This document shows positions 1,806-16,452 of a stretch of 64,000 bases of DNA, one piece after another. Every line of letters begins with the position of its first letter. Within the stretch, counting starts at the first letter, position 1. The notes under the pieces are model-generated. The model did no database searches. It saw only the letters and a program-made list of their open reading frames with translations, and was not told the DNA's origin. A program made the translations under genes and the position numbers. Source of the DNA: Calditrichales bacterium (GTDB taxonomy: Bacteria > Calditrichota > Calditrichia > Calditrichales > J004); NCBI GenBank assembly GCA_965267575.1, contig OZ254086.1:992001-1056000 (forward strand), given 5' to 3'.

Positions 1806-2472
1806 CGAAAAAGAGATTAACCTCCATTACCTCATCGAGCCGCTTAAGGGCGCGACTGAATTCCTGGGCCTGGTCTTCCTTGCGCAGCTTGATGTAATAG
1901 GACATCTCGAGGAGGCCGTCCTCATCTATCGAGCGCAGGTTAACCAGCTTATAGTCCCTGCAGAAACGCTCCAAAAGCGGGTTTTGTGCCGGGGGGCCGT
2001 CTCCGTCCCCGGAGCGCATGATCATTTGCAGAAGATACTCGCGCCGGGGGTGAGAAACAATCTCCAGGCGGTTAAGCGCAAAGGCGACAAGGCTGACAAT
2101 TATCGTCCCGCCAAAAGCGGCAAAGGCCAGCCCGACACCGGCGGCCATACCGATAGCCAGCGAAAAGAATATAAAAACGATGTCCTGCGTGTCCTTTACG
2201 GCCGTGCGAAAGCGGATGATCGACATGGCGCCCACCAGACCAAAAGCGCGGGCCAGGTTGTTACCGATTACCATAATGACGATCGACGTGATCATTGCCA
2301 GCAGCACCAGGGCGTTGATGTAGCTGTTCAGATAGCCGGGACCGCGGTAGGTTTTGCGGTAAACCCAGGCAATAATCGCTCCGCACAAAAAAGCCACCAG
2401 CAGGTTGCTGATCATTTCGCCCGGCGTAAGCGATGTTTCAAACAGTGATTTCAGATCGGTGAAAAATGACAT
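1789..2472 (-). CDS. DUF4956 family membrane protein
   Basis: Signature IGNNLARAFGLVGAMSIIRFRTAVKDTQDIVFIFFSLAIGMAAGVG; adjacent to a VTC-domain gene. Confidence 0.9.
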   Translation of the reverse strand: MSFFTDLKSLFETSLTPGEMISNLLVAFLCGAIIAWVYRKTYRGPGYLNSYINALVLLAMITSIVIMVIGNNLARAFGLVGAMSIIRFRTAVKDTQDIVFIFFSLAIGMAAGVGLAFAAFGGTIIVSLVAFALNRLEIVSHPRREYLLQMIMRSGDGDGPPAQNPLLERFCRDYKLVNLRSIDEDGLLEMSYYIKLRKEDQAQEFSRALKRLDEVMEVNLFFDEEKF

Positions 2473-2485
2473 ATACTCGTCCTCC

Positions 2486-3268
2486 TTAACGATGCAGCAA
2501 GTGAACCGGCTTGCTCAGGCCAAGCGTGCTGTCCGGCCAGTAGAACGCCCGTTTCCTGTAGGCATTCAGGCAGATGGTATATTTGGAAAGGGCCATGCGC
2601 TGCAATCCAAGCTTCTTAATAATTTCCTTGAAAAAACGCGGGTAGCTTCCGTAAAACTTAATTTCCAGAATGGACCTGCCGCGAAGGGCATAGTGCAGGT
2701 CTTCCGTGAACAGACCGTCCAGTTTGGGAAAAGCGTGATAGCGTAAATGGCGGTCCATTGTCGCGCGTACTTTGTATCCGTAATTCGACGAAAAAGCGCG
2801 GCGGTCATAAACCACCAGCATGGACGGCGAGAGGCTGTGGCGTAAAACATGATGATAAAAACGTCTCGCGTCTTCCCTGTTCTTTTCAAAATCCGCGCCG
2901 TTGGTAAGCAGCTTTTCATCGTGCCTGTTAAGATATTCTTCCAGATCGTTGTAAAGCAGCGAAGCGCGGTTTTTGGTTATATAGTTTTCATACTTGCGCT
3001 TAATTTCGAGAAAAGCGTGACTCTCATCCTGGCGCTTATTATAGCCTCGTATCCTTACCTTTTTGCGCACACGGTAGCCTTCGATCTTTTCATGATAATA
3101 TTTGAAATAACGCGTATCCAGGTAAATGCTGCGCACCGTGTAATAATGATTCGGCATACGGGCGGCAAAGGGGTCCAGCTTTAGATATGGGGACAAAGCA
3201 TCCAGAACGCTTTCCACCCGTTCGTCCGGAACCAGGAATTTATATTCCAGGCGCATCGCTCCGTTCAT
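2486..3268 (-). CDS. VTC (polyphosphate polymerase-like, CYTH superfamily) domain protein
   Basis: Motifs RLEYKF, YTVRSIYLDT, RKKVRIRGY, FLEIKRK, VVYDRRAF, RATMD, ILEIKF, LSKY. ATG at 3268 overlaps the upstream TAA (ORF track extends to 3286). Confidence 0.9.
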   Translation of the reverse strand: MNGAMRLEYKFLVPDERVESVLDALSPYLKLDPFAARMPNHYYTVRSIYLDTRYFKYYHEKIEGYRVRKKVRIRGYNKRQDESHAFLEIKRKYENYITKNRASLLYNDLEEYLNRHDEKLLTNGADFEKNREDARRFYHHVLRHSLSPSMLVVYDRRAFSSNYGYKVRATMDRHLRYHAFPKLDGLFTEDLHYALRGRSILEIKFYGSYPRFFKEIIKKLGLQRMALSKYTICLNAYRKRAFYWPDSTLGLSKPVHLLHR

Positions 3269-4353
3269 TACATCAGGTCGTTCCATAACCTTCCCAACCA
3301 GGTGTAGAATGAAACTTTGCCGCTTTCAATAGAGCACTCCACGGGTAAACCGGGCGCCAGGTGTTTGCCATTGTTTATCGTTCCCGTTATCACGGCCATC
3401 GATTTCTGGGCGAGAATAAAACTCTCCTGTCCGATAAGCGATACATACCCTTTGCTCGACATGCCGGTTCCGGGCACGGAAATACTAAGCGAGTCTCCAA
3501 CGGCGAGCATGGCCGCTTCCTGCCAGGGAACCGCCACGTGCACCACCCAGCTTTCCGCGTCTCGCACAATAAGCAGGGTATCACCGGAGAACAGCTGGGC
3601 TACCGTCCCGCTGAAAGGTGCACGCAGCTTTTTGCCGCTTTGCTTTTCGGCAAGCACCTTTAACTGGCCTTTCAAATCATCAATCCTCTGCTGCGAATAG
3701 GCAATTTGGGCGGGCTTTGCCCCGCTTTGCACCTGTGCCAGTTCCGCTTTGGCAATATCAATTTCCGTTTCATAAAGACGCAAAAGAGTTTCGTGATACT
3801 CGTATTCCTGCTCCGGGATCAATCCCGTATTAAACAAATCCTTTTGACGCTGCAGCACAATTTTCTGCGCTTCATATTGCTGAATGCGGTTTGCCAGATA
3901 ATCGCGCGCGGCCTGCACTACCTCTTTTTTTTCACCGCTGCTGTCCACACGAAAAAGGGCCTGTGCTTCATTCAGTGCTCCGCGCAGTTCCTCTATTCGG
4001 TAGGAATCTTCCAGCGAGAGCACGCCGCCGATTTCAGTGTCTTTCGGGATTGATGTGCCGGGGGCAATACTGTCACTGGGGTCAAAGCGAAAAAGATCGC
4101 CGCGCTGCAATGATAAAACAGAGTAACTGCGCTGGCCGCCGCGCAAATGATCGATTGTTTCGCTTATCACCTGGCCGTCGTTACCGCGTTTTACGATCCA
4201 CTCACGCGATGCCATAATTTTGCCGCGACCGTTTACCGTCCAGCTAAGTTCCGGCGCCCACACGAGCAATATGACAATCGCGATAAGCAAAAGTATGCCA
4301 AGAATCCGTTTAACTTTTTTTGGGTACATCCTTATATCCGCCTTTCGATACAC
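3268..4353 (-). CDS. HlyD-like membrane fusion / periplasmic adaptor protein
   Basis: N-terminal TM, long coiled coil (LFNTGLIPEQEYE), LRAPFSGTV lipoyl half-motif, C-terminal LAPGLPVECSI barrel. The start may be ATG 4329. Confidence 0.7.
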   Translation of the reverse strand: MYRKADIRMYPKKVKRILGILLLIAIVILLVWAPELSWTVNGRGKIMASREWIVKRGNDGQVISETIDHLRGGQRSYSVLSLQRGDLFRFDPSDSIAPGTSIPKDTEIGGVLSLEDSYRIEELRGALNEAQALFRVDSSGEKKEVVQAARDYLANRIQQYEAQKIVLQRQKDLFNTGLIPEQEYEYHETLLRLYETEIDIAKAELAQVQSGAKPAQIAYSQQRIDDLKGQLKVLAEKQSGKKLRAPFSGTVAQLFSGDTLLIVRDAESWVVHVAVPWQEAAMLAVGDSLSISVPGTGMSSKGYVSLIGQESFILAQKSMAVITGTINNGKHLAPGLPVECSIESGKVSFYTWLGRLWNDLM

Positions 4354-4500
4354 TCCTCAAAATAAGCTTTAAAAATACAAACATTAATCTAACAATAAAA
4401 ACTAATCGCTATTGCTGCGCTTTTTTTAATGGAAATTTTTAGCGCAAAATCCTATTTTACGGCAACCTGCCCGAGCATCATAAAACACCGGAGAGATATT

Positions 4501-5466
4501 ATGTGGGAGATCGCCATCCCCCTTTTGCTGTTAGTCGCTTATATCATTTATGAATTCAGGATTCGCAAGCCCGATCAGTTTATTCTTTATGAAAAGGGCA
4601 ACCGAATCCGGATACGCAGCGCCCGTTTCTATCCACGCCACTTCAGCCTCGCGGTTCCGCGGCAGGCGCTTACCACTAATTTGAAATTTGAAGCCGAAGC
4701 CCGTGGCCGCCTGGCGCTGGAAGTTAAAATTGTGCTGAACGCGGCGCCGGCGGACGAGCATCTGGACGCGCTTATCCGCAGCGGCGGCTGGAATAAAGAT
4801 GCCAGCAATAAAGCCATGGAACAGGCCCGTGTCGTCATCGAATCGCTGAGCCGCAACCTGTGCGCCCGCCACGATGTGGAGACGCTCTTTTCCGATGTGC
4901 TGAACGAACACCTCCGCAAAGAGGCAGCAAAGCCCCTGCTGCAACTGGGTCTGCAACTGGTGGCTATCAACACGCAAAGTATAGAACCACTGGATCGTGA
5001 TATTGTTGTGGCCATGCAAAAGCAGGAAGAAGCGCGCATCCGCGAGCAAACTGAAAAGAACGAGCAGAAAGTGCGCATCGCCCTGGCCCGTATGCGCGTG
5101 GAAGCCGAAGAGAAAATACTGAAGGACGAACAGGCGCTTGCTCTAAGAAAACTTGAAATGAAGCAGGATCTGGATAAGCAGGAAGCGGCCCTGGCCGACC
5201 AGCGCGTGCGCGAGGAACTGGCCCGCAAAAAACAACAACTGGCCTTTGAAAAAGAAGAAATGGCGCTCCTGAAAAACCATCCCGAACTGCTGATGCTTTC
5301 GCCTCAAATAACACAACTGGCCAAAGCCAGCCAGAAACTGCCCAATGCTAAAACGGTCGTATCCCTCTCTCCGGAAAACAATGCCGCCGCCGGCGACCTG
5401 CTGACAACATTGCAAAATCTGGTAACTAATATTTTATCCGGGTCCGGACGCTCCTCCGATAAATAA
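4501..5466 (+). CDS. SPFH/band-7 (flotillin-like) membrane protein with a long coiled-coil tail
   Basis: GGAGA RBS then ATG 4501; N-terminal TM; SPFH-like core ending LGLQLVAINTQSIEPLD; Glu/Ala/Arg-rich coiled coil; C-terminal HPELLML..SQKLPNAKTVV. Confidence 0.7.
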   Translation: MWEIAIPLLLLVAYIIYEFRIRKPDQFILYEKGNRIRIRSARFYPRHFSLAVPRQALTTNLKFEAEARGRLALEVKIVLNAAPADEHLDALIRSGGWNKDASNKAMEQARVVIESLSRNLCARHDVETLFSDVLNEHLRKEAAKPLLQLGLQLVAINTQSIEPLDRDIVVAMQKQEEARIREQTEKNEQKVRIALARMRVEAEEKILKDEQALALRKLEMKQDLDKQEAALADQRVREELARKKQQLAFEKEEMALLKNHPELLMLSPQITQLAKASQKLPNAKTVVSLSPENNAAAGDLLTTLQNLVTNILSGSGRSSDK

Positions 5467-5474
5467 TCCGCTTT

Positions 5475-8400
5475 ATGAAAAAAGAGAGCTTTCCATTTAA
5501 ACTGAAGCCGTTGATCGCGGCCCAGGTTTCGGAGATCAGCGAGGTTACAGCCGCCGCGGATATTTCCGATTCCGAAAAGATCAACTTTCACATCGGCAAC
5601 CCGCTGTCCGATGCGCGGCTGATTAGCGCATACACCGATTTATGTCTGAAAAATGACAGCACCCCGGCGCCCGAAGATATGCGCGCCCTCATCCACGAGA
5701 CAGTCAAAAAAGCCGTGCCCTACAGCCCTCGCGGTGGTTACCGCAGCAATGCACGTCCGGCACTTGTGGAAAAAATACGCCGCTGGCTGGAAGATGAACA
5801 GGCCGAAGGTATTTACTACGCCCTTGGTGATAACAATGGCAAGCGCGAATGTATTTTGAGCAGCGGGGGCATGACGGAAACGCTGCGGGTTCTTTTACAG
5901 ACCATCTCCGATTACACTGTTGCCGGGCCGGTTCAATTGCTCAACCTGGGCTTTGTTGCCGCCGGGGAACTACCGACTTTTAAGGGGCTGAGCATTCCGC
6001 AGAATCTGGATTCCGTTTACGGCCTTGGTGACTTTGAAGGCAAAGCGGCCGTTGTCCTGCTGGGCACCGAAGCGGGAGCCCGCGAACGGCGCTGGCTGAG
6101 ACGGCACGACCATAATGCGCCGCTCTTATTCGTGGAGCTCAACAACGCCGCAAACGACCACTCGCTGGCACGCGAGAGCGGGCTTTTTCAAAATGTCATC
6201 CGGGTAATTGACGCGGCTGTTCTGCGTAAGGATCTATCGGAAGGCTCGTTGCAATTTGTGCTGGGCAACAGCGACTTTCTTCAGCGCATGGAATCGGTGC
6301 ACTTTGAACTTAAGGGAACACCTTCTTCCACAGAAATTGTTTACCTGGAAACACGCCTTTCCGCAGCCGCTCCCAAGGAAAAGGACCGGGGCCAAAACGA
6401 TGTTGTTTCCGCGGAGCCTTTCGCCCGGGCAAGTGGCATTTTAAAGAAAGCGCGCGAACTGAGCCACCGTTACGAGCAAAAAAGCGGGCAGATCGCCCGG
6501 CGGCTGGTGGAAAAAAATTACGGAGCTGACGCGCCTCTTCTTTCCATCGGCAGCGCCTCGCGCCACCTTGGCCTGAACCACGCCGCCTTCGAGGAATTTG
6601 CCGAAATGGACAGCGCCGATTTGTTCAACGCGCTGGAAGACCGTGAAACGGCCGGCAAACTCGGCCATGCCTTCACGGAACATTTCTGCCGCCATCACCC
6701 CTGGTATAACCGCAAAGATTGTTACGCGGTCAGCGGATCGGCGCGCACCGCTTTTAGCCTGCTGGGCCGCCACGGCGCTATTCAAGATGTCCTGGTGTTT
6801 GATATGGGCTGGTCTTACGAAAACGCTTTTGCACGTGTGCACGCCGTGCCGCTTCTTGAAGACGACGACCGCAACGCGCAAAACATGATTGATGCCTGCG
6901 CGGAGCTTGATGAACACAGCGCCGTCATCCTGAACAACCCGCATAATGCTAGCGGACGCGTTTTTTCCACTGAAGCGATCGAAAAGATCCTGCTCTATTG
7001 CCTTGATCGCAAAATCACCGTCATCGATGATTTGTGTTATCCCAATGTAGCGCCTGTGCTGGAATGGCCCGCCATTCCCTGCGCTAAAGAAATCGCCCGC
7101 CACGCCGTGGACACGGGACGCCTCAGCGCGGACCGCCTGCAGTATCTCATTACCGTGCACTCCTTATCAAAGTGCGATTGCTTCGCCGGTGCCCGTTTAT
7201 CCGTCGTGGAAACGGCTCACCCGCGCTTAACGGAAAATTTCAGCCGGCAGCTTAATCGGCTGGCGCCCAACACAATGGCCCTCTTTCTGGCCTATCTCTT
7301 TTACCGCAACACGCCGCATGATGTGAGGAGCTACTGGCAATTACGCAATCGCCTGCTATATGAAAAAGGACAGGCCCTGCGAAAAGCGATGGAAGAGATT
7401 GCCGAGGAGCGCAACCACTACAAGCTGCGTTTTGAATTACCACAGGCAACGATCTATCCGCATCTGAACATCGGGCTTTTTCCCAATGGACTGTCCACGG
7501 ACAGGCTGGCGTTAAAACTGGCCAAAAGTGGTATCGGGCTGGTTCCGTTGGCGAACTTTACGCGGCACACGGATACATTTAGCGAAGCACGCAAGAAATT
7601 CCGCCTGACGCTTGGCGGCAGCGACCCTGCCGTACAGCTTGAGGCCAAAGCCCGGCGCCTGCTGGTCGAACTCAATCGCGCCATAAACAGCGAAGCGCGG
7701 CAATACCAGTTTTATGAGCCCCAGCCGGCCCCCAAAAGCACGGCCAACGGTGCTGCGCTCAAAGAGCTCGTGGCCGAATGGGATAACATCCGCGGCGGCT
7801 TAAAGCAATCAGCAACGAAATTATGGAAAAAACGTGCCCGTTCATTGAAGCGGGTTTCGGGACGAGACGCGTTCGAACGGTTTCTTGAAGAGCGCCTGGC
7901 CCTGATCGGCGAACAAATTGAGGAAACCGCGGAGCTGTACGACCGCCAAAAGTTTCTTTTCCAAAATGCGACCGAAGCGGAGTTGCAGCGTTTTTTCGAA
8001 CAAGAGTTTTTCAAACAGGAAGCCGCGGCACGGGAAAGACAATTCAACACGCGCCTGTTTGACCGCACCGTCCATCCTACGCAAATGTATGCCGTGGAAG
8101 TGGCGCTGCATACACGCAACTGGCTTTTGCACCGGCTTCAGGGACGTCCTTTGTCCGCTGCCTGGCCGGAAAACCTGGCCCGCGCCCTGGCCGATGAATA
8201 TTTCGGCTACAATGTGCCGCTTAATTCCGAGCAGGAGGCCGGCGAGCTGATCTGCGACTTGTGGACGCTTTCGCTGAATGACATGTACCGCCATGGCCTG
8301 GATAGCAGCGCACCTTCTCTACTCAGTTTTTGGGGAGACTGGGATGGCAGCACGCGCCCTTCCGGGCAGGGGCATCGTCTTGTAGCGGCCGTTCTGATCG

Positions 8401-10859
8401 AGAATCTGCAGCAACTGGCGCATATGCTGCGCGTTCTGGACCGCCAGATCAACACGTTTGATCTTGACCAAAGCGTGCAAAAGGAATTATCGCGCCTGCC
8501 CGCGGACCTGGACAAATTCTGGAAGGTGCTGAATAAAATTACGCGTTTGACGCACCAGCTGGAAAAGCGCTACAGCGGCCTGCTGCCGGGACACCTGTTT
8601 GGCGCCGCCGGTCAGAGACGCCATCTCACCTGGAAACGCGATCCGGTGAAGAAGCTATTTGCGCACAACGACCGACTGGAAAGAAAAATGCAGCAATTGC
8701 GGCGAGAGCGTTCACGGCGCCTGACCTATTTCTTTGACCTGAACAAAAGATTGCGAAAAGAACTGTTCGCCCTGGCACCGCAGGTTATTAAAAACCGCCA
8801 TGATGAGAAAGTGGCGGGCATTGTTTCCGGTTACCGCAACCTGCTTTCACGTTTTGCCCTTACGCCGCGCATCCACCAAAAAATTATCCGCGCCGCAGAT
8901 CCGTTTGCGGTTGAAACAACGATGCAAAACCTGCTGGAGATAAACGCCCTTTCAGCGCGCTTTGGCAATCCGATGATCATTCCTGCGCTGCAGGTCAGCA
9001 TGTCCAATGATCCGCAGGCCCTGGTACACCTGGATCGCCTGATGCTGGCGCAGCCGCAGGCCCGCGAAAACAACGCGCGCTTAAAGTTGATACCTCTTTT
9101 CGAAGAGGAAAGCGTGCTGTTAAGGCTGGAAGAATATCTCGATCATGTTTGGAATTATGCCGCAGAGAGTGCCGCTTTGAACCAGGAAGTGCCGGCGCGC
9201 TTCAGCGAGTTGGTCAGCGAGATATTTGTGGCCGGTTCCGATCTGAGCCAGAATATCGGTTCCATAAGCAGCCGCAGTATGTTTAATAATACAGTGCGCA
9301 GATTCATCGAATGGCAGATCGCGAAAAACATCTCTCCGTTATTGCGTGTTAAGCTGGGCTGTGGTGAAGCGGCTCAACGCCAGGCGGGTTATTACAATCC
9401 TTATTCCGGGCGGCCGGTTACAGCCTTAGAAAATAGCGCCGGATTCCCGCTTGCGTTCGGTCGCTATCCGCTGCTGGGCCTTGCCCGGCTTGATCAGCTT
9501 ATGACCGTACAAAGTAACGGAGCCGAACATATTTTCCGCTTTTTACCTTTAAGCGAGCGTGACCGCCTATTTCATCACATGCGAAATATGCAATCCAATT
9601 TTTACACGGAAGCGATGCGCATCCGCGAAATGGCAACTGAAACCCGGCTCTCCCTGGGCCGCCGCGCGGAAAAAGAGCTGCAGCGCTTGTGCCGCGTAGC
9701 TGACGATCCGCTGGTTGAGGAATTTAACGATCTGCACAAGGAGTATTACCGGCGTATTGTTTACGGCAGTGAGAACGACCTTTTTGGCATCCATGTGATC
9801 ACATACTTTATCTCGCGCATGGTGCCTGCATTGCGAGACCGCCCGGCCATACGTCCTTCCCGCGAGGACAGTAACAGTAGCGGCCAGATAATGGAACGGC
9901 TGGCGCAAACCATCCCTATGGCGCGTCATGACAGCATGCTGCGGGCGATCGGGCATAACCGCGCTCAAAGCGTGGTGCTGGGATCCAACCAGTTTACAAC
10001 GGGATTGTTCGCCGCCCTGCACCAGCTTATCCGCAGCAAGCGCGGGCAGCTGCAGGAGAACCAGATAATTGAACGTATCCTGCATCACCTGCCGGTCTAT
10101 GATATCCTTAAGTCAATACGCTATTACCAGCAGAAAGACCTACGCCATGCCCACTTCTTTGACGAAGAGTTCCGTCGCGGTAACAGTGCCTGGGCAATAC
10201 TGGAAAATGACGCAATCCTGATAGATAAATATATCCCGCACTTACAAAACCAGCTATTAATTGATCTGGGGATTTCGGCGGATAAGGCCTCCGGCAGATT
10301 AGCGGATCGCCTGATGGATAAATTACATCCGGACCTTGCGGTATTGCTGCAGGAAAATATCTTTAATACGGACATTGCTGTTTACCGTGAAAAGTACGGA
10401 ACAAACCGCACGGCATTGCTGCAAGAAATTTTACAACGCCCGGAAAAAATAAAAAATTGGCGGGATGAGATATGGCAATTGATTGGAAGTAAGGTCAAAA
10501 AACAGGTATCCAGTTTTATAGACCTGGCTCGTGCGATTCATGGGCTTTCTCAAAGGACGGCGCTTGCCGGCGGCTTGTTGGGCGCCGAAGAGAATAAGCT
10601 ACCGCGCCTGGCGGATGACATCCAGCAGCTGATCCAAAAAGACGCGGAAGATCCCATGCGTCGTTTTCTCTATTCTGCCGCCACGCTTCTTGCCCGTGCA
10701 TCGGCGGAAAACGTTCAGCTTCCCGTGGATGCCGTGCGTGCTCTGCGTGACGTACGTCGCATTGCGCAGATCGATCAGCAATTGCTAAGTCCAAAAGAAC
10801 AGAACGAACTACGCTATTACCTGCTGCAAATCGCCCGCCTGACCAACGATAACGGTTAA
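5475..10859 (+). CDS. 1794-aa fusion: degenerate aminotransferase I/II domain + intact PLP aminotransferase I/II domain + PEP carboxylase-like domain
   Basis: Aminotransferase motifs INFHIGNP, YSPRGG, ILNNPHNASG, IDDLCY, HSLSKCDCFAGARL, FRLTLGG. PEPC-like motifs in correct order: TVHPTQ, SFWGDWDGS, IPLFEE, EIFVAGSD, GCGEAAQRQAG, TVQS, RPAIR, LRAIGH, C-terminal IARLTNDNG. Confidence 0.8.
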   Translation: MKKESFPFKLKPLIAAQVSEISEVTAAADISDSEKINFHIGNPLSDARLISAYTDLCLKNDSTPAPEDMRALIHETVKKAVPYSPRGGYRSNARPALVEKIRRWLEDEQAEGIYYALGDNNGKRECILSSGGMTETLRVLLQTISDYTVAGPVQLLNLGFVAAGELPTFKGLSIPQNLDSVYGLGDFEGKAAVVLLGTEAGARERRWLRRHDHNAPLLFVELNNAANDHSLARESGLFQNVIRVIDAAVLRKDLSEGSLQFVLGNSDFLQRMESVHFELKGTPSSTEIVYLETRLSAAAPKEKDRGQNDVVSAEPFARASGILKKARELSHRYEQKSGQIARRLVEKNYGADAPLLSIGSASRHLGLNHAAFEEFAEMDSADLFNALEDRETAGKLGHAFTEHFCRHHPWYNRKDCYAVSGSARTAFSLLGRHGAIQDVLVFDMGWSYENAFARVHAVPLLEDDDRNAQNMIDACAELDEHSAVILNNPHNASGRVFSTEAIEKILLYCLDRKITVIDDLCYPNVAPVLEWPAIPCAKEIARHAVDTGRLSADRLQYLITVHSLSKCDCFAGARLSVVETAHPRLTENFSRQLNRLAPNTMALFLAYLFYRNTPHDVRSYWQLRNRLLYEKGQALRKAMEEIAEERNHYKLRFELPQATIYPHLNIGLFPNGLSTDRLALKLAKSGIGLVPLANFTRHTDTFSEARKKFRLTLGGSDPAVQLEAKARRLLVELNRAINSEARQYQFYEPQPAPKSTANGAALKELVAEWDNIRGGLKQSATKLWKKRARSLKRVSGRDAFERFLEERLALIGEQIEETAELYDRQKFLFQNATEAELQRFFEQEFFKQEAAARERQFNTRLFDRTVHPTQMYAVEVALHTRNWLLHRLQGRPLSAAWPENLARALADEYFGYNVPLNSEQEAGELICDLWTLSLNDMYRHGLDSSAPSLLSFWGDWDGSTRPSGQGHRLVAAVLIENLQQLAHMLRVLDRQINTFDLDQSVQKELSRLPADLDKFWKVLNKITRLTHQLEKRYSGLLPGHLFGAAGQRRHLTWKRDPVKKLFAHNDRLERKMQQLRRERSRRLTYFFDLNKRLRKELFALAPQVIKNRHDEKVAGIVSGYRNLLSRFALTPRIHQKIIRAADPFAVETTMQNLLEINALSARFGNPMIIPALQVSMSNDPQALVHLDRLMLAQPQARENNARLKLIPLFEEESVLLRLEEYLDHVWNYAAESAALNQEVPARFSELVSEIFVAGSDLSQNIGSISSRSMFNNTVRRFIEWQIAKNISPLLRVKLGCGEAAQRQAGYYNPYSGRPVTALENSAGFPLAFGRYPLLGLARLDQLMTVQSNGAEHIFRFLPLSERDRLFHHMRNMQSNFYTEAMRIREMATETRLSLGRRAEKELQRLCRVADDPLVEEFNDLHKEYYRRIVYGSENDLFGIHVITYFISRMVPALRDRPAIRPSREDSNSSGQIMERLAQTIPMARHDSMLRAIGHNRAQSVVLGSNQFTTGLFAALHQLIRSKRGQLQENQIIERILHHLPVYDILKSIRYYQQKDLRHAHFFDEEFRRGNSAWAILENDAILIDKYIPHLQNQLLIDLGISADKASGRLADRLMDKLHPDLAVLLQENIFNTDIAVYREKYGTNRTALLQEILQRPEKIKNWRDEIWQLIGSKVKKQVSSFIDLARAIHGLSQRTALAGGLLGAEENKLPRLADDIQQLIQKDAEDPMRRFLYSAATLLARASAENVQLPVDAVRALRDVRRIAQIDQQLLSPKEQNELRYYLLQIARLTNDNG

Positions 10860-11077
10860 CCGGCCCTGTTATAACAACGCTCGCGGACAAACTGCTCCAG
10901 GGCCAGCCTCTCCGCTTCTATGCGCTCAAGCCCACCCTCAAATTCCATTATAGCAGATCTTTCCTCCAGAACCTCAATATCCTCAGGTTCCAGTATATAG
11001 GGGAAATTTCTGTATGAAATATGAGAGTAACCCGCTTCGTTCATGTCTCCTATCATAAAAGAAGTACTTGGATTCAT
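10856..11077 (-). CDS. Small hypothetical protein with an EERxAIMEF/YxGGL motif
   Basis: 73 aa containing LEERSAIMEFEGGLERIEAERLA, a motif recurrent in small phage/mobile-type hypothetical proteins; stop overlaps the convergent stop (TTAA). Confidence 0.55.
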   Translation of the reverse strand: MNPSTSFMIGDMNEAGYSHISYRNFPYILEPEDIEVLEERSAIMEFEGGLERIEAERLALEQFVRERCYNRAG

Positions 11078-11428
11078 GCGCGTTTACCTTTATAATGTAC
11101 TTATGTACACCAATAAAGGTATACAAAAATTTACCGGAACGCAACATTTCGTCAGCAAAAGCGTTTATTGTTCAATTATGTAGCATTTCTTAAGAGTGCA
11201 AAAATCATCTCGAAATTCTGTATAGAAATTGCACAGGATGACCAATATCACGCGGAAAATGTAACCGTGGTCAAAGTGAAAGCATTAAGGGATGGTTATT
11301 ATCAATTAAAACGATCAGGGAAAAATCATGAAATTAAAACTGAAAATAAAACTAAAAGCGCGGCTGTTTATAAAGCTTCCGGAAAACAGTAATATCTTTT
11401 TTCACGAAGAAAGCCGCTTGATTAAAGA

Positions 11429-11456
11429 AACGCGCAAAGATAAATCTTCGCGCGTT
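11429..11456 (-). terminator. Probable intrinsic terminator of the GWxTD gene
   Basis: Minus strand AACGCGCGAAGAT-TT-ATCTTTGCGCGTT hairpin followed by TCTTT. Confidence 0.55.
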
Positions 11457-11502
11457 GAAATGATAAAACTTTTACCAAAAGCCGCATTGTATCTCTAAAA
11501 TC

Positions 11503-12774
11503 TTATCTCGGCATATATTCTGCCAAAGTCTCCTGCTTATCCAACAAATTAAACGGGGCAAAACCGTTAAAGCCGACAAACGTAAAGGCCAGATCCAGAT
11601 TGCTGTAATACCATACCTGCCGCGTTTCCTTTAAAAACGAGCCGGTTTTAGCATAAACCCGGTCGGGCTCACCAAACAAAACGTAGATCATTCCAAAATC
11701 GCTTTTATAGCCGGGCAAATCATCTTTTGTGAAAACCAGATTTGCATGATCCAGGCGCTTATAGTATTCCTCCATCAACTCATTTTTTGCGCTGCCGGGC
11801 GTAGGGTCTCTTTTAGCCCAAAAGCTCTTTAATATCTCATTACGTTGCTGTGCGGGAACCTGATACATCTCATTAATCTCTTCTTCAGAAGCAATATAGC
11901 GCAATTCATCCACAGCATCGCTAAAGCGCTTAAAGCGGATGTCCAGCGGACTTTGCCGTACGTGAAAATACGTCTCAGAACTGATCGCTTGCGTACCGGC
12001 TTCCTGTGTAACGACAAAACGATATGTATCCGTGGGCAGGTGAGCCACTGAAAAATTCAGACGGAACGCGGGGTTTGATATGGTGACGGGTATTTTCTCA
12101 TCGGCATCATGCCATACTTTGCCATTGCTGTCTACAACTTTATAGTTCGTCAAGACGTTGCCGTCATTTTTCACCACTTCTGTAAGGTTATAAGATTCAT
12201 AATAAATAACCACCGTGGGATTTTTATATGAAAAACGCCGTGCTACGTTGGGCAGGCTTTCTCCCTTTTCGCCATCAGCTATGCTCAGCTGGATTGAGCT
12301 TATGCCGGGGGCGGAGTAATAATCGGTACATGCAATTTCTTTTTCGATTTTCAGGCGCTGGCTGGAGTTTTTATCATCCAGGACCAGCAGCGACTTATAG
12401 TTACCGGGCCTGACGCTAAGACCCAACTTGAACAGATGACCGATCGATCCGTCCCGGGTTTCGCTGTATTGGGCATTTATAATTTCTTTTTGAATGGACT
12501 GTTGTATTTCCAGCGTTTTGTCCTCATTAAACAAATAGAGCGTTGCGCTAACCACGGTTTTAAACCCGGAGGCGTCACGCACGAAATGCAGCTGTTTGTT
12601 TGTAAGAACAAAATAGTACTCCAGATAGGTCATCCCCGGCTCAGCGGAGCGAAAGGTCAGATAATCAACGGCCATAGCAGAAGTAGTTTTACCATCGGCG
12701 GGCGCCGCAAGCAACATAAGAAAAATAGCAGCCAAGGCTTTGATACCTGTCTGATGGATTTTACTTTCTTCCAT
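11503..12774 (-). CDS. GWxTD domain-containing exported protein
   Basis: GGAGG RBS and ATG 12774; signal peptide; C-terminal LRYIA..FWAKRDPTPGSAKNELMEEYYKRLDHAN..GYKSDFGMIYVLFGEPD..QVWYY. Confidence 0.85.
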   Translation of the reverse strand: MEESKIHQTGIKALAAIFLMLLAAPADGKTTSAMAVDYLTFRSAEPGMTYLEYYFVLTNKQLHFVRDASGFKTVVSATLYLFNEDKTLEIQQSIQKEIINAQYSETRDGSIGHLFKLGLSVRPGNYKSLLVLDDKNSSQRLKIEKEIACTDYYSAPGISSIQLSIADGEKGESLPNVARRFSYKNPTVVIYYESYNLTEVVKNDGNVLTNYKVVDSNGKVWHDADEKIPVTISNPAFRLNFSVAHLPTDTYRFVVTQEAGTQAISSETYFHVRQSPLDIRFKRFSDAVDELRYIASEEEINEMYQVPAQQRNEILKSFWAKRDPTPGSAKNELMEEYYKRLDHANLVFTKDDLPGYKSDFGMIYVLFGEPDRVYAKTGSFLKETRQVWYYSNLDLAFTFVGFNGFAPFNLLDKQETLAEYMPR

Positions 12775-13086: not shown

Positions 13087-14034
13087 TTACCGTGTCACGT
13101 CAACATAGATAGTATCGGCAATAACAGAGCCGAAGACACCGATAGCGTCACCTTCAAAGTTAAAACGCGCTTCGTGAAAATTGCCGTCGAATTCCTGAGT
13201 ATTGGCAAAGGTTTGCAGGAATTCCTTGTAATTCTTATCCGCCGCGTAAACGATCACTTCATATTTTGAATAGAAGAAAAAACTGAACCAGAAAATGGGA
13301 ACGGTGCTTTCGCCGGGCGTGGAAGGAGTGTTTTGTATCCAGTTGGTGTCAAAAGCGAATTCCTCAAAGTTTTCCTCATAGTCTTCAGGATCAAGATCGC
13401 CAACGAGGTGCTCAATGATAAAGCTGCCAAAGTCTGTTTGCAGCGGACGCACGCTGGTCACGTAAAAAGTCGTACCGGGTGAGCGCTGAATTTTCATTTC
13501 AAAAACCATTGTCTCGCCCTCATCATCGGTTTGCGCAAACTGCAGGCTGTTATGATTGATGCCGTTGATGCGGAAACCCGCTTCGGGCACCGTTGTGCTG
13601 GAGCGCGCTGTCAAGAGCTGGTCATCAATGACGGTTTGCACATCCAGGGTGTAGGTTTTGCCATGCTCAATCCTGAGATCGTTACCCCGGTAGCCGTAGG
13701 TATAGTTTTCAAAATCAAAAATACTGTCCGGTACGCTTAGTGTGAGAGGGTATTTCAGGCCACTGCTTTCGTCGGTTAAGACAACCTTTGTTTGTGTATA
13801 GCGCGGCAGCAGGTCGGCGGACGGACGCAGATCAGCGTCGAGAGGGAAATTTCTTGAAATACGGATATCCCGGACGGGTTGGCCGGGCACAAGATAACCT
13901 TCCACAACAATGCGCGGCTCGTAGCTTACATTGGTAACCTCAACGGTAGCTTCGCCACAGCCGCCCAGGAACAAGGCAATCGTTACTAAAAATAAAAAGG
14001 CGCTGATTTTAGAATAGAACATTTTAAAACTCAA
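13087..14034 (-). CDS. DUF4249-like lipoprotein partnering the TonB-dependent receptor
   Basis: Lipobox LGGC, PRIVVEGYL, GKTYTLDV, C-terminal NFEGDAIGVFGS; overlaps the receptor stop. Confidence 0.75.
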   Translation of the reverse strand: MSFKMFYSKISAFLFLVTIALFLGGCGEATVEVTNVSYEPRIVVEGYLVPGQPVRDIRISRNFPLDADLRPSADLLPRYTQTKVVLTDESSGLKYPLTLSVPDSIFDFENYTYGYRGNDLRIEHGKTYTLDVQTVIDDQLLTARSSTTVPEAGFRINGINHNSLQFAQTDDEGETMVFEMKIQRSPGTTFYVTSVRPLQTDFGSFIIEHLVGDLDPEDYEENFEEFAFDTNWIQNTPSTPGESTVPIFWFSFFFYSKYEVIVYAADKNYKEFLQTFANTQEFDGNFHEARFNFEGDAIGVFGSVIADTIYVDVTR

Positions 14035-16345
14035 CGTTAACTCCTATTGTTGGCAATAGCGGAAACATATACTGCTCGGCGAGCGTCGGTTGGCCGTCTT
14101 CAAAATCGTAGGTGGCGAACCAGACGTTGCTGCGGTTTCCGATGTTGAAAATTTGCAGATAAGGTATCAGGCGCCAGCCGTCGAACTGCCTTTGCCAGGA
14201 GAGGCTCAGATCCAATCTTGAGTAATAAGGCAGGCGAATCTGGTTGATTTGCGTAGGCGCAAAATAGACATCGCGCACGGGCGTTCCCGGAGCACTGCCG
14301 ATAAAGTAGCCCGATCCCGGCTCGGTAAACGGCTGCCCGCTGGCATAAATAAAGTTGATGCCCAAAGACCAGCTGCTACTATCCTTGCGGAAACTCCGAC
14401 TTTCGAACAGGCGAAAAACATTATCGAGATCAACGTTGGCCACCAGGTTAACGGTGTGCCTCCTGTCGTGGCGTGGCTGGAATTGCCGTTCCTGGTTCAC
14501 ATCATCTACCCAATAATCGGTGTATGCGAGCGAGTACCCGGCCCAGCCGTTAAGCACGCCGCTATCCTTGCGCAGCAGCACTTCAAGACCGCGCGAAATA
14601 CCGTCGCCACGGTTAAGCAACGCGGCTCCGCTGGTGAAGATCGGCTCGTCGTTTTCATTGTAGCCGCTGGCTTCCAGATCCGTTAAAAAGGTTTGGTTAA
14701 AGGAATAGATATCCTTGTAATCTTTATAGAATGCCTCCACCTCCAGCTGCAAACCCTGTGGCAACTCGCGCTGCCAACCCACGATATAGTGGTTGGATTT
14801 GGAGTAGGTCCGCTCGGAATTGGTGGTGGTCCAGATATCGGCAATCAGGAAGCGTGGGATACGGTGCAAAAACTGGTGATATGCACCCGTGGCAAACTTT
14901 ACGCTTTGTTTGGTATCGACACGGTATTTGATAGAAAAGCGCGGCTCCCAGCTTACAAAATCTTTATCCGACGAAAAGTGATTGACGCGCAGACCGGCGG
15001 AAATGTCCCAAACATTCTGCGGACGCCAGGTGCTTTGCAAATAGCCGACACTATGCACCGGCGTTGTTTTTACGCGTACTTCCCGGCCCGGCCCCAGCGA
15101 TAAAAAGCGCACGTCGAAATGCTTGCGTTCAAATCCAAAATCGCTGTGCCAGGTGGTTGTATGATAAAATTCCAGGTTTCCCTTGGCAGTTAAATCGACC
15201 AGCGTATTTTCTTCGCTGGCGTCGAAGCCTTCAAAATTAAGGAATGAGGAAAAGCGGCTGCCGGTCAGCCAGAAATTGGCAAACAGACGTGAACCAAAAA
15301 GATGTGTCCATTTTATGCTGCCGGTTTCATTACCCCAGTCATACAAAAAACCCAAATCGGCGGCGACGGAATTGTTGACCTTGAAATCCAGCACGTCACG
15401 GCCGCCATAAAAACTGACATACAGGTGGTTGTTGTCATCAATATCCCAAAAGGCTTTGGCATTGCCGTCATAAAAATAGTAGTTGGGAATGTCGTCGATA
15501 AAGCGAGCGATCGTCTGGTCGAAATAGGTGCGGCGCAGTGAAGCCGAGAAAGAACCGGACTCTCCAAGTGGCATTTGCAGCGTAGTCTTGGCGGAAAGCA
15601 GGCTGATACTGGCCTTGCCCTCAAACTCCTCGCGGTTGCCATCCAGGTTGGTTACGCTGATGATTGATGAAAGACGTCCGCCCTGGTCAGCCCCAAAACC
15701 TCCCTTGGAAAGATCGACCTGCTTGATGGCATCGGTATTAAATGTGGAAAAAAGGCCGAAGGCGTGTTCGGGATTGTATACGTCGGTGCCGTCCAGCAAA
15801 TAGAGATTCTGGTCAGGCGTGCCACCGCGTATATAGAGCGCCGAGGAAAAGTCGGACAATGGCAAAATCCCCGGTAGCGTTTGCAGTGATCGCAACAGGT
15901 CGGCTTCAGCGATTTGCGGTATGCTGTTTATCTGCAGGGGCGAAAGCTTGACCTGTGAGATCTCTTTCTCATAAAGCTGCTGGGAAATGGGTATGGAATC
16001 GGCGGTGACGGTTATGGCCTCCGATTCAAACAATGCGGGCTCCAGTGCAATATTCAGTTTCTGCTCCTTCACACCGTTAATCGTTACCGTTTCGCGGTGT
16101 GAGCGGTAGCCCAAATAGGAACAGACGAGCACGTAGGTCCCGGGCGGGATATCCGGAATCACGTAATAGCCGCTTAAGTTGGTGGCCGCGCCGAGTTGCG
16201 TGTCTTCAAGGTAAATATTGGCGGCGATCAGCGCCTCACCATTGGAAGCGTCCAGCACATAGCCGCTTAAGGTGGACATCTCCTGAGCGTGCAGGGGCGA
16301 AGACAACAGCAGGCAAAAAAGCAATCTGTAAAAAAATCTTTTCAT
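14024..16345 (-). CDS. TonB-dependent receptor with N-terminal carboxypeptidase-regulatory-like domain
   Basis: Motifs LSGYVLDASNGEALIAANI, EADLLRSLQTLPG, LYIRGGTPDQNLYLLDG, GGRLSS, EPRFS, HDRRH, RLPYYSRLDLS; C-terminal Phe. Confidence 0.92.
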   Translation of the reverse strand: MKRFFYRLLFCLLLSSPLHAQEMSTLSGYVLDASNGEALIAANIYLEDTQLGAATNLSGYYVIPDIPPGTYVLVCSYLGYRSHRETVTINGVKEQKLNIALEPALFESEAITVTADSIPISQQLYEKEISQVKLSPLQINSIPQIAEADLLRSLQTLPGILPLSDFSSALYIRGGTPDQNLYLLDGTDVYNPEHAFGLFSTFNTDAIKQVDLSKGGFGADQGGRLSSIISVTNLDGNREEFEGKASISLLSAKTTLQMPLGESGSFSASLRRTYFDQTIARFIDDIPNYYFYDGNAKAFWDIDDNNHLYVSFYGGRDVLDFKVNNSVAADLGFLYDWGNETGSIKWTHLFGSRLFANFWLTGSRFSSFLNFEGFDASEENTLVDLTAKGNLEFYHTTTWHSDFGFERKHFDVRFLSLGPGREVRVKTTPVHSVGYLQSTWRPQNVWDISAGLRVNHFSSDKDFVSWEPRFSIKYRVDTKQSVKFATGAYHQFLHRIPRFLIADIWTTTNSERTYSKSNHYIVGWQRELPQGLQLEVEAFYKDYKDIYSFNQTFLTDLEASGYNENDEPIFTSGAALLNRGDGISRGLEVLLRKDSGVLNGWAGYSLAYTDYWVDDVNQERQFQPRHDRRHTVNLVANVDLDNVFRLFESRSFRKDSSSWSLGINFIYASGQPFTEPGSGYFIGSAPGTPVRDVYFAPTQINQIRLPYYSRLDLSLSWQRQFDGWRLIPYLQIFNIGNRSNVWFATYDFEDGQPTLAEQYMFPLLPTIGVNVEF

Positions 16346-16452
16346 TATCCTTAACCGAATGTTTGGGCGGATAACGAAACGCACTTCATATTTGTTTCAG
16401 CGGCAAAATATATTTGCTGTTCAGGGAAATTTTAACAGGAAGGGGTTTTTCT

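Follow-up and report, generated by a model that had tools for sequence, protein, structure and literature searches.

The open reading frame P0001 almost certainly encodes, in one chain of 1794 aa, a class-I PLP aminotransferase joined to a very divergent homologue of PEPC, and this assignment concerns both the identity of the two modules and their architecture. It lies in the window considered here, that is the whole stretch of 64,000 nucleotides from a Calditrichales bacterium, and an ORF check bore out the limits and the length which had been proposed for it from the sequence alone. The single-chain fusion, which was part of the same original prediction, is supported by Foldseek, VIA and hhalign, and also by the two sets of active-site residues, both of which are fixed in 136/136 family members. 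The eight motifs named at that time, with their residue numbers, were all found in the P0001 translation: TVHPTQ (H867), SFWGDWDGS, IPLFEE (E1210), VAGSD (D1256), GCGEAAQRQAG, RPAIR, LRAIGH (R1490) and the terminal IARLTNDNG.

Homologues of P0001 number 269 at E <= 0.001 and are mostly about 1850 aa long; the conservation of residues was counted over 136 family members sharing ~35-45% mutual identity. In this family strict purifying selection acts on each of the two catalytic centres. The sources of the homologues call them aminotransferase or hypothetical, much as had been expected of annotation pipelines, which were thought to label only the aminotransferase; and, in agreement with the statement that no fusion of this kind had been characterised, no description of an aminotransferase-PEPC fusion was found in the literature searched. 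Caldithrix abyssi is named in the homologue sources as a cultivable relative. The features discussed below are collected in Table 1.

Table 1. Position of the fusion gene, of its modules and key residues, and of the partner gene in the window.
Feature	Position	Strand	Evidence or role
Whole fusion ORF P0001, one ORF of 1794 aa, ATG start, stop included	5475..10859	+	ORF and translation
Partner P0123, 345-aa membrane-anchored SPFH/Band-7-like protein	4429..5466	+	PF01145, sequence, alignment
Aminotransferase N-terminal segment, aa 1-~124, with INFHIGNP and Y-x-P-R-G-G	5475..5846	+	VIA, conservation
Inserted alpha/beta domain and disordered linker, aa ~125-400	5847..6674	+	model, conservation
Aminotransferase large and small domains, aa ~401-745, with PLP set	6675..7709	+	PF00155, profile, Foldseek, VIA, conservation
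PEPC-fold module, aa ~790-1794	7842..10856	+	AF2 model, Foldseek, VIA, hhalign, conservation
H867	8073-8075	+	catalytic His by alignment, 136/136
E1210	9102-9104	+	metal ligand Glu by alignment, 136/136
D1256	9240-9242	+	metal ligand Asp by alignment, 136/136
Q1259	9249-9251	+	Gln where the HCO3- Lys is expected, 136/136
Variant Gly-rich loop G1295-G1305, with R1302	9357-9389	+	hhalign, conservation
R1456	9840-9842	+	PEP-binding Arg by alignment, 136/136
R1490	9942-9944	+	PEP-binding Arg by alignment, 136/136
W953, R1132, terminal G1794		+	further key positions of the PEPC-fold module

Concerning the N-terminal part, residues 1-745 had been taken as a plain aminotransferase region: one such fold is indeed present, but the comparison with VIA revealed a domain of ~270 aa inserted in it, which had been missed. 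The model of residues 2..738 was matched by VIA to LysN (2egy_B) at Z 32, with 376/394 residues aligned, and ~376 of its 749 residues suffice for the aminotransferase fold; glutamine, aspartate and succinyl-DAP aminotransferases matched the same model at about Z 30-31. In Pfam, PF00155 was found at aa 422-713 with 29.7 bits, above its cut-off of 19.7, and a profile search matched aminotransferases of the PDB, the best being 3b46 (E 3.2e-10). The PLP set, K566, D519, Y522, N491, R574 and R710, is kept at each position in 136/136 proteins, and the Schiff-base lysine K566, within S565-K566, is encoded by bases 7170-7172. The PF00155 score, the fold-type-I structure and this residue set place the module among the class-I aminotransferases. 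Its substrate specificity is not assignable because all NCBIfam equivalogs score far under their cut-offs (the best 32.5 bits against 290, and the aspartate aminotransferase model NF041091 15.5 bits against 550). The structural neighbours of the N-terminal model comprise aspartate aminotransferases and, equally, LysN, glutamine aminotransferase, ACC synthase and C-S lyases.

The inserted domain is specific to the family and carries near-invariant polar residues of its own, R205, E221, N227, S230, R233, E234, R243 and K280; in the insert and linker region the pLDDT of the model is low at 301-321 and 342-371. It may be a degenerate domain of the aminotransferase type: 29/30 of its language-model neighbours are PF00155 clusters, at a score of 0.95, which serves as a lead only, and hhalign gave no significant match between the inserted domain and the second half.

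The C-terminal part was modelled with AlphaFold (aa 750-1794; pLDDT 80, pTM 0.84) and, compared with known structures, it models as a PEPC, as had been predicted. Foldseek returned 1jqn, the E. coli PEPC, at E 6.2e-13, and all the top matches listed are PEPCs. In VIA the archaeal-type PEPC 3odm_B was aligned at Z 18.8 (rmsd 3.5 A, 479/529 residues, 16% identity) and 1jqn at Z 16.4 (662/874 residues); in a second look the top rows were PEPCs in 24/24 cases and the next fold came at Z 11.6, and in a wide search of 48,161 chains two PEPC representatives reached Z 16.9, with other TIM barrels at <= 11.2. The structural alignments to PEPCs reach the last residue of the model (1045) and so cover the C-terminal motif. 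At the level of the fold, Foldseek and VIA therefore place the module in the PEPC superfamily.

The relationship was also recovered from profiles. Using as query the C-terminal family with 5 stand-alone relatives, and as target 19 canonical PEPCs, hhalign gave a probability of 96.3% and E 1.5e-9 over 402 collinear columns, extending from TVHPTQ/TAHPTE to the Gly-rich loop, with 5/8 of the motifs listed above landing on their PEPC counterparts. In the tail the best local match consists of RPxxR and LRAI, which alone is not significant (E 0.098). The family models for archaeal-type PEPCs remain below cut-off with P0001 (PF14010, 14.5 against 25 bits; TIGR02751, 11.8 against 146), the sub-threshold hit of PF14010 falling on the PLFE-GSD region (aa 1188-1290, E 0.013), and PF00311, with a gathering threshold of 22.4 bits, gave no match at E <= 1. 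As a calibration, true PF00311 PEPCs cross-match PF14010 at 17.9-32.2 bits and the fusion at 14.5-16.7, in the same profile region. An HMM-versus-sequence search of the PDB gave no significant PEPC, neither with A1 nor with A5, where 3odm_A came at E 0.087, and pairwise BLASTP of P0001 against the genome's own PEPC was not significant. The stand-alone relative P0231 matches the fusion profile at E 6e-28 and passes PF14010 (32.8 bits against the cut-off of 25); by sequence, it bridges the PEPC-like module of the fusion to PF14010. Within the PEPC superfamily the module belongs to a lineage of its own, separate from PF00311 and from PF14010.

In PEPC the Glu of PLFE is a metal ligand, and a hydrophobic W/L/F pocket surrounds the site of CO2 attack. 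The role of the catalytic His of VLTAHPT is given in PMC7917721, which also describes the C-terminal tetrapeptide as 'critical'; the Mg2+ site is assigned to the Asp of the GYSDS motif in PMC5141416, a plant gene-family paper in which the Lys of GYSDSGKD is annotated as the HCO3- site; and PEP binding is attributed to the Arg of GRGGGP, GSRP and LRAIPW, with the Trp of SWMGGDRDG at the PEP site (PMC5141416, PMC7917721). As reference for these residues we used P0121, a PEPC of the same genome. TVHPTQ aligns with TAHPTE, and H867 is kept in 136/136 proteins; E1210 and D1256, at the Glu of PLFE and the Asp of G-Y-S-D-S, are conserved to the same extent, and so are R1302, R1456, R1490 and W953 at the PEP-binding positions, each in 136/136. 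R1302 and W953 are placed by the significant hhalign match; R1456 and R1490 are placed by the non-significant local one (E 0.098), with support from the structural alignments that run to the C-terminus. P0001 ends in ...NDNG and the family consensus in ...GENG, the terminal Gly being present in 135/136.

Other positions are changed. Where the HCO3- Lys of G-Y-S-D-S-x-K-D is expected, 136/136 fusion proteins have Gln (Q1259), which is found only in the aminotransferase-fused form, since the stand-alone relatives and L056 have Lys or Arg. The canonical loop F-H-G-R-G-G-x-x-G-R-G-G has kept its second Arg and lost its first Arg and its His, the family loop being K-L-G-[S/C]-G-E-x-x-Q-R-Q-G-G: the first Arg is replaced by Ser (113), Cys (21), Asn (1) or Thr (1) in the 136 proteins, the His preceding it by Leu, and a loop Gly by E1298, which is invariant (136/136). 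K1293 is new in the fusion family and equally fixed (136/136).

The fusion is not the only protein of its genome with a link to PEP. Two canonical PF00311 PEPCs, P0121 and P0122 (969 and 758 bits), are present, together with PEPCK, which occurs in 21/21 fusion carriers. Among 61 genomes of the phylum, 7 have the fusion and a PEPC, 14 the fusion only, 15 a PEPC only and 25 neither; chance alone predicts 7.6 genomes with both the fusion and canonical ppc. The fusion is thus carried independently of canonical ppc; of the carriers, in which the lack of this gene had been named as a point to check, 7/21 have a PEPC and 14/21 have none. From the two PEPCs and the PEPCK of the genome, and from this independence, it follows that the genomic data give no indication of an anaplerotic role for the fusion. 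Beyond the phylum, the aminotransferase-fused architecture, known from Calditrichota, was found in Ignavibacteria, Bacteroidota and Aminicenantes, while in the CPR groups Saccharibacteria and Peribacteria the PEPC-like lineage occurs as stand-alone proteins; a deltaproteobacterial MAG has it behind an unrelated region of ~1100 aa. The stand-alone relatives, which have no aminotransferase, keep the same motif set.

The stop codon of the partner gene P0123 lies 8 bases upstream of the fusion ATG. Read from the sequence of P0123, a hydrophobic N-terminal helix is followed by an SPFH domain and a long helical region rich in E/A/K/Q, and the C-terminal end carries a conserved NAKTVVSLS motif, after which comes an amphipathic tail. 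Since homologues begin near M25, translation may in fact start at 4501. PF01145 was matched marginally at aa 96-214 (24.9 against 23.6 bits, E 2.3e-5), no NCBIfam family was found for P0123, and the best hit of a PDB sequence search (E 0.14) was not significant. An SPFH gene is located directly upstream and on the same strand in 11/11 fusion loci with sequence available, and across the 61 genomes the SPFH partner is present in exactly 21/21 fusion carriers and 0/40 non-carriers: the SPFH gene and the fusion gene form one unit. Both this obligatory partner and the inserted domain had escaped the original prediction.

The simplest reading of these data, to which we assign a probability of about 0.4, is the conversion of PEP and HCO3- to oxaloacetate and then to aspartate. 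Aspartate aminotransferases use oxaloacetate as their 2-oxo acid, and a coupling of the two modules is plausible because the PEPC reaction yields this very compound. In the 2020 review PMC8100219 oxaloacetate is indicated as the PEPC product. The PEP-using module is predicted to be catalytically active, and probably is. Its barrel would bind Mg2+ and PEP through E1210, D1256, R1132, R1302, R1456 and R1490, with the hydrophobic W953, L1208 and F1251 also involved; with H867, the pyruvate enolate and a phosphorylated or activated one-carbon partner would give oxaloacetate, and the fused aminotransferase would turn this labile 2-oxo acid into aspartate, with glutamate as amino donor. The enzyme would act on the SPFH scaffold, on the cytoplasmic side of the membrane. 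Of the channelling from PEP and CO2 to aspartate that had been put forward, the fusion of both homologues stands, but the carboxylation step has lost ground: the changes at the HCO3- Lys (Q1259), the first loop Arg (Ser/Cys), the loop His and the loop Gly (E1298) count against it and, judged on the alignment, would partly weaken it, and the two canonical PEPCs, the PEPCK and the ppc-independent carriage weaken the channelling further.

The same changes make it possible, although we propose it tentatively, that the fold hosts a new chemistry in which Mg2+ and PEP are bound with no bicarbonate carboxylation. The phosphoryl group or the enolpyruvyl carbanion could go to another acceptor or electrophile, possibly made or held by the PLP module, or PEP could give pyruvate, then transaminated to alanine; the module pair would in either case be a two-step pathway not yet described. 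Such a chemistry would agree with the fixation of Q1259, E1298 and K1293 in 136/136 proteins, with Ser or Cys at the first loop Arg in 134/136 and with the restriction of Gln 1259 to the fused form, as opposed to the Lys or Arg of the stand-alone relatives and L056; a third carboxylase moreover looks redundant in a genome with two canonical PEPCs and PEPCK. The occurrence of the fusion is not complementary to that of canonical ppc, and a dedicated membrane SPFH partner is unexpected for plain aspartate synthesis. However, of the PEP-binding Arg only one has been lost, and the others are kept together with the catalytic His, the two metal ligands and the W/L/F pocket. K1293 could make up for the missing Arg, the assignment of the Lys to HCO3- comes from motif annotation in one plant paper (PMC5141416), and the data do not allow another substrate to be named. 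It is less likely than not, in our opinion, that the protein is a membrane-scaffolded, perhaps cage-associated two-site enzyme on SPFH, whose barrel has moved away from carboxylation with bicarbonate and would spend PEP on phosphorylating or alkylating an acceptor which the PLP site makes or consumes, giving a product other than plain aspartate.

A different role for the aminotransferase module would be that of a sensor: as in GabR/MocR, the PLP-binding domain would recognise an amino acid such as aspartate or glutamate and exert allosteric control over the PEPC-like enzyme, in place of the aspartate site through which canonical PEPCs are allosterically regulated. GabR effector domains do match the N-terminal model (4n0b_C Z 29.6, 5t4j Z 29.3, 8vxk_A Z 29.2), the inserted domain could transmit a signal, and according to PMC8100219 aspartate is a known PEPC inhibitor and archaeal-type PEPCs are devoid of the inhibitor-binding residues of bacterial and plant PEPCs. 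We nevertheless consider a sensor improbable: the complete residue set, including the alpha-carboxylate R710 and Y522, is fixed in 136/136 proteins, which fits catalysis at least equally well, structure and profile searches both place working aminotransferases first, and the SPFH partner would be left likewise unexplained. It could also be thought that the PEPC-like part has lost catalysis and serves only as a scaffold or for oligomerisation, the protein being just an unusually large aminotransferase, as annotation pipelines see it and as the changed key loop residues of canonical PEPC might suggest; but dead domains do not normally hold such positions as H867, E1210, D1256, R1302, R1456 and R1490, invariant in 136 proteins of ~35-45% identity, and the motif set is common to the stand-alone relatives without aminotransferase, so that this explanation has very little chance of being correct. 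The failure of BLASTP against the genome's own PEPC and of the HMM-versus-sequence PDB searches to reach significance would be compatible with a chance resemblance, in which a helical or TIM-barrel protein of other descent happens to carry a collection of short motifs. This is ruled out for practical purposes by hhalign (E 1.5e-9, 402 collinear columns), Foldseek (E 6e-13) and VIA, where PEPCs reach Z 16-19 over nearly the whole archaeal-type chain and generic TIM barrels about 11; against it stands also the transitive sequence link to PF14010 given by P0231.

The 2020 review distinguishes four types of PEPC, namely bacterial, plant-type, plant bacterial-type and archaeal-type, and the word 'fusion' is absent from it (PMC8100219). 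The proteins described here represent a further, deeply divergent PEPC lineage which is missed by the family models and exists in at least three architectures. If aspartate is made from PEP and bicarbonate, the fusion would unite in one natural polypeptide the two opening steps of an aspartate-type C4 route; co-expression of those C4 enzymes in crops is being attempted, as reported in PMC12946523. If the product is not aspartate, the fixed Lys-to-Gln change and the changes in the loop point to a new PEP chemistry coupled to PLP chemistry. Either way, the strict pairing with SPFH (21/21 versus 0/40) would give this poorly understood family a defined metabolic client.

With SPFH/Band-7 scaffolds such as stomatin, flotillin and HflK/C (PF01145), P0123 has in common the layout of membrane helix, SPFH domain, charged helical region and conserved C-terminal end. 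The usual operon partners of SPFH genes are an NfeD-type protein or a protease, whereas P0123 is paired with a soluble metabolic enzyme. With the class-I aminotransferases of the AspAT/LysN/kynurenine-glutamine group, P0001 shares the fold, PF00155 and the invariant PLP Lys, Asp, Asn, Tyr and both Arg; it is however only ~16% identical to them, has the ~270-aa insert after the N-terminal segment and carries ~1000 aa added at the C-terminus.

Bacterial and plant PEPCs (PF00311; 1jqn, 3zge, P0121, P0122) have the same overall fold as the C-terminal module, from the TAHPT helix to the C-terminal Gly, and the collinear motifs HPT(E/Q), W-x-G-D-x-DG, (D/P)-I/R-x-Q, ISM/VSMS, PLFE, GSD, the G-rich loop with the second Arg, R-P-x-x-R, LRAI and the terminal G are common to both. 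The fusion differs from them in being about 12-16% identical in structural alignments and without a PF00311 match, in having Gln for the HCO3- Lys, Ser/Cys for the first loop Arg and Leu for the loop His, and in having an aminotransferase on the same chain and an SPFH gene as partner. Archaeal-type PEPCs (PF14010; 3odm) are its best structural match, with a common PLxE(D) metal motif region, and PF14010 is the only PEPC family model that the fusion touches; at the residue level this comparison covers the stretch of the 3odm_A profile match. Compared with these enzymes the module of the fusion is about twice as long, below the family cut-off and fused to an aminotransferase, its extra helical elements align better to the bacterial and plant PEPCs (662/874 residues of 1jqn), and its Gly-rich loop is the variant G-[SC]-G-E-x-x-Q-R-Q-G-G.

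Translation of the region gave one open reading frame with an ATG start, and in the encoded protein (P0001) all eight PEP carboxylase (PEPC)-like motifs of the original prediction were found at the residues named. In the Pfam search the class I/II aminotransferase family PF00155 matched aa 422-713 (29.7 bits, cut-off 19.7), and the archaeal-type PEPC family PF14010 gave a match below threshold at aa 1188-1290 (14.5 bits, E 0.013), a stretch containing IPLFEE and VAGSD. NCBIfam returned weak aminotransferase-type matches, all far under their cut-offs, and TIGR02751 at E 0.079, so that no substrate specificity could be assigned from it to the aminotransferase part. With aa 750-1794 as query, a word-indexed search returned 269 proteins at E <= 0.001. 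Among the 120 of these that were listed, nearly all measure 1730-1900 aa, 118 carry PF00155, and the source names comprise Calditrichaeota, Caldithrix abyssi, Ignavibacteria, Melioribacteraceae, Bacteroidota and Aminicenantes; as had been anticipated, the named entries among them are called aminotransferase or hypothetical protein, never PEPC. In four family members the PEPC-like part is complete, but the aminotransferase part is short or absent and PF00155 does not match: P0092 (1325 aa, 612-kb contig), P0083 (1315 aa), P0133 (1160 aa) and P0147 (994 aa). Split genes, frameshifts or miscalled starts could account for them, or they may be true shorter forms.

The relationship of the C-terminal part to PEPC was evaluated at increasing depth. 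Pairwise BLASTP of the fusion against P0121, a canonical PEPC of the same genome, gave nothing significant, and the family profile matched one PEPC sequence weakly in hhalign (E 0.077). Searches of the PDB with the single fusion sequence and with the full-length profile (A1, HMM against sequence) returned aminotransferases only, with no PEPC; the C-terminal profile (A5) placed the archaeal-type PEPC 3odm_A on top, but at E 0.087, and the profile of stand-alone relatives (A6) found no PEPC. Against 19 canonical PEPCs from the phylum, the C-terminal family aligned in hhalign at E 2.5e-4 over 150 columns, spanning PLFE, GSD and the Gly-rich loop. Five stand-alone relatives of 900-1040 aa (P0231, P0244, P0254, P0257 and P0258) were then obtained by an exhaustive HMM search of 1.84 billion representatives, in which P0231 matched the fusion profile at E 6e-28. 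When these were included, the hhalign comparison with canonical PEPCs reached a probability of 96.3% and E 1.5e-9 over 402 collinear columns, running from TVHPTQ/TAHPTE to the Gly-rich loop; the tail, RPxxR...LRAI, is the best local match there and alone is not significant (E 0.098). P0231 also scores 32.8 bits on PF14010, over the cut-off of 25, and thus provides a transitive sequence link from the fusion to PEPC, on a scale where genuine PF00311 PEPCs reach just 17.9-32.2 bits over the same profile region.

The AlphaFold model of aa 750-1794 (pLDDT 80, pTM 0.84) was submitted to Foldseek, as the original prediction had proposed, and the top matches listed were PEPCs only (1jqn from E. coli, E 6.2e-13). 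A separate structure search that did not rely on Foldseek compared the model with 48,161 chains and put the two PEPC representatives at the top (Z 16.9), with other TIM barrels at 11.2 or less, and in a second structural search the best 24 rows were all PEPC entries (24/24). The model aligned with 3odm_B at Z 18.8 (rmsd 3.5, 479/529 residues) and with 1jqn at Z 16.4 (662/874); the next-ranked fold was malyl-CoA lyase, at Z 11.6. These PEPC alignments extend to the final residue. Since the profile-profile and structural results are clear, homology of the C-terminal part to PEPC can be considered established on sequence profiles and predicted structure; its place in either curated PEPC family is not established. 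No true archaeal-type PEPC was found among 61 genomes of the phylum, where PF14010 gave only cross-matches from canonical PEPCs and the fusion.

The model of aa 1-749 (pLDDT 86, pTM 0.86) matches class-I aminotransferases. In the Foldseek-independent search LysN aligned over 376/394 residues at Z 32, followed by glutamine, aspartate and succinyl-DAP aminotransferases and ACC synthase at about Z 30-31. Whole aminotransferase chains align over model residues 2..738, and the N-terminal half is therefore, as modelled, a single aminotransferase fold into which about 270 extra residues (about aa 125-400) are inserted. This result also argues against a tandem duplication, for which the comparison of aa 1-335 with aa 385-749 was not significant (hhalign, E 0.14). 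The insert is modelled as an alpha/beta domain with a disordered linker, and 29 of its 30 language-model neighbours are PF00155 clusters; the resemblance to a degenerate aminotransferase-type domain is a lead only. The insert has near-invariant polar residues of its own: among the full-length members described below, E221, S230 and R243 are kept in 136/136, R205 in 135/136, N227 and E234 in 134/136, K280 in 133/136 and R233 in 132/136. This conservation suggests a possible ligand-binding or docking site.

Conservation was assessed in 136 full-length members of 1600-2000 aa, with about 35-45% identity to the query. Residues N491, D519, Y522, S565, K566, R574 and R710 of the aminotransferase part, and H867, W953, R1132, E1210, F1251, D1256, Q1259, K1293, E1298, R1302, R1456 and R1490 of the PEPC-like part, are invariant (136/136), and the terminal Gly is kept in 135/136. 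Judged from these alignments, both putative catalytic residue sets are strictly constrained, and the protein is a true fusion of an aminotransferase with a member of the PEPC superfamily. Residue roles in PEPC were taken from motif passages in two plant papers (PMC5141416, PMC7917721) and from general knowledge, and convergence of the motif residues on one site was addressed through homology only. Besides the substitutions listed in the table, K1293 is a new invariant Lys two residues before the loop's first Gly (G1295).

Features of the fusion, its partner and its relatives (window coordinates unless a locus is named; "lit." marks assignments from motif passages in PMC5141416 and PMC7917721)
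Feature	Location	Strand	Remarks
Fusion P0001	5475..10859	+	1794 aa
Insert in aminotransferase fold	5847-6674	+	aa ~125-400
SPFH/Band-7-like partner P0123	4429-5466	+	345 aa
Solute-binding protein	483-1805		
VTC-domain and DUF4956/MgtC-like genes	1789-3286	-	adjoining
HlyD-like gene	3268-4353		
TonB-dependent-receptor-like and DUF4249 genes	13087-16384	-	paired
Canonical PF00311 PEPC paralogue	L001:1459-4221	+	920 aa, 969 bits; window's genome
Canonical PF00311 PEPC paralogue	L002:1267-4065	+	932 aa, 758 bits; window's genome
Stand-alone protein	L053:8935-11844	+	969 aa; variant PEPC-like motif set
Stand-alone protein	L054:127-3513	+	1128 aa; variant PEPC-like motif set
Third architecture	L056:5689-10773	+	1694-aa ORF, no Pfam match; deltaproteobacterial MAG
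ORF directly after it	L056:10780-11664	+	294 aa, no Pfam match
Fumarase/aspartase-family gene	L056:4175-5581	-	flank
Type-I FAS-like megasynthase	L056:11775-18697	+	flank
Catalytic His	H867		retained; lit.
PEP-site Trp	W953		retained; lit.
PLFE Leu and Glu	L1208, E1210		retained; lit.
Mg2+ Asp	D1256		retained; lit.
Lys annotated as HCO3- site	Q1259		Gln, invariant; lit.
His of FHGRGG	L1294		Leu
First Arg of FHGRGG	1296		Ser 113, Cys 21, Asn 1, Thr 1
Loop Gly	E1298		Glu, invariant
Second loop Arg	R1302		retained; lit.
GSRP Arg	R1456		retained; lit.
LRAI Arg	R1490		retained; lit.
Terminal Gly	G1794		retained; lit.

The MAGs that encode the stand-alone relatives belong to Saccharibacteria and Peribacteria (CPR). 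At the two loci fetched, their neighbours are housekeeping genes (NusA, pyrophosphatase, EF-Tu, S10), with no aminotransferase or SPFH gene within the fetched flanks. In the deltaproteobacterial MAG, the last ~590 aa of the long ORF show the variant PEPC-like motifs as far as the Gly-rich loop, and the ORF that follows may be the remainder of the barrel; no SPFH gene was found in the fetched flanks here either. The variant Gly-rich loop is common to the stand-alone relatives and this protein, and at the position equivalent to Q1259 they have Lys or Arg.

The SPFH/Band-7-like gene is an obligatory partner of the fusion. It lies 8 bases upstream, gives a marginal SPFH/Band-7 match, and its sequence shows an N-terminal hydrophobic helix with basic residues behind it, a charged helical stretch and, at the C-terminus, a conserved motif. 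It was found immediately upstream and on the same strand in 9/9 fetched loci reaching that far (a tenth, which stops at a contig edge, was left out) and in two more, that is 11/11; no further conserved neighbour of the fusion was found in the fetched loci. Across the phylum, the fusion is present in 21/61 sampled genomes, some of them related and so non-independent observations, and the partner (E <= 1e-10) in exactly the same 21, in single copy, 9 of these carriers and the window's genome having supplied its query alignment. A predicted complex of fusion aa 1-749 with partner aa 190-345 scored 0.00 without controls, which speaks neither for nor against binding. Predicted promoters and terminators in 4200-11600 showed no excess over shuffled sequence (7 vs 5.9 and 16 vs 12.4).

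Other genes lie nearby in the window. Those for the VTC-domain protein (PF09359, E 1.6e-40), the DUF4956/MgtC-like membrane protein, the HlyD-like protein and the solute-binding protein were not kept beside the fusion in other genomes examined. The TonB-dependent-receptor-like gene (CarboxypepD_reg and Plug) and its DUF4249 neighbour occur near the fusion in just one relative (locus L044, genome G047; 56% and 65% identity), which looks like local synteny outside the system.

We also evaluated whether carriers lack canonical ppc, a check named in the original prediction. The window's genome, one 4.73-Mb contig that is 98% complete, has three PEPC-superfamily genes including the fusion, and also PEPCK. 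PF00311 is present in 22/61 genomes; 7 have both it and the fusion (7.6 expected under independence), 14 carry the fusion without PF00311, 15 have PF00311 without the fusion and 25 lack the two, so that with 7 of 21 carriers having both there is no replacement. The phylum also holds a shorter PEPC type, with frames of 848-888 aa and a PF00311 match in two pieces. PEPCK was found in 50/61 genomes, including 21/21 carriers, and PF02436 (pyruvate carboxylase or oxaloacetate decarboxylase) in 10/61, namely 6/21 carriers and 4/40 non-carriers. Taken over the 61 genomes, these distributions rule out that the fusion replaces other oxaloacetate routes.

The PEPC-like barrel would probably bind Mg2+ and PEP and perform enolate chemistry. 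The simplest product joining both sites would be oxaloacetate, which would then be transaminated to aspartate. We hold this conversion of PEP to aspartate by the fusion as a tentative reading, with a probability of about 0.4. A module that kept the PEPC fold and took up an altered chemistry is a strong rival and a real possibility, because the Lys-to-Gln and loop substitutions are fixed, the canonical PEPCs and PEPCK make the fusion look redundant, and the requirement for a membrane scaffold is left unexplained; on the other side stand the retained His, Trp, Mg2+ Asp and Arg residues.

The two remaining explanations are less likely. That the aminotransferase fold acts as a sensor is improbable, and that the PEPC-like domain is dead is very improbable. 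The literature searched, which largely excludes subscription journals, yielded no account of a fusion of this kind or of its lineage. Four PEPC types are recognized in the passages seen of a review of the PEP-pyruvate-oxaloacetate node, in which the word "fusion" is never used (PMC8100219), and in those of an aminotransferase review the sole fusion mentioned is BIO1-BIO3 (PMC9309667).
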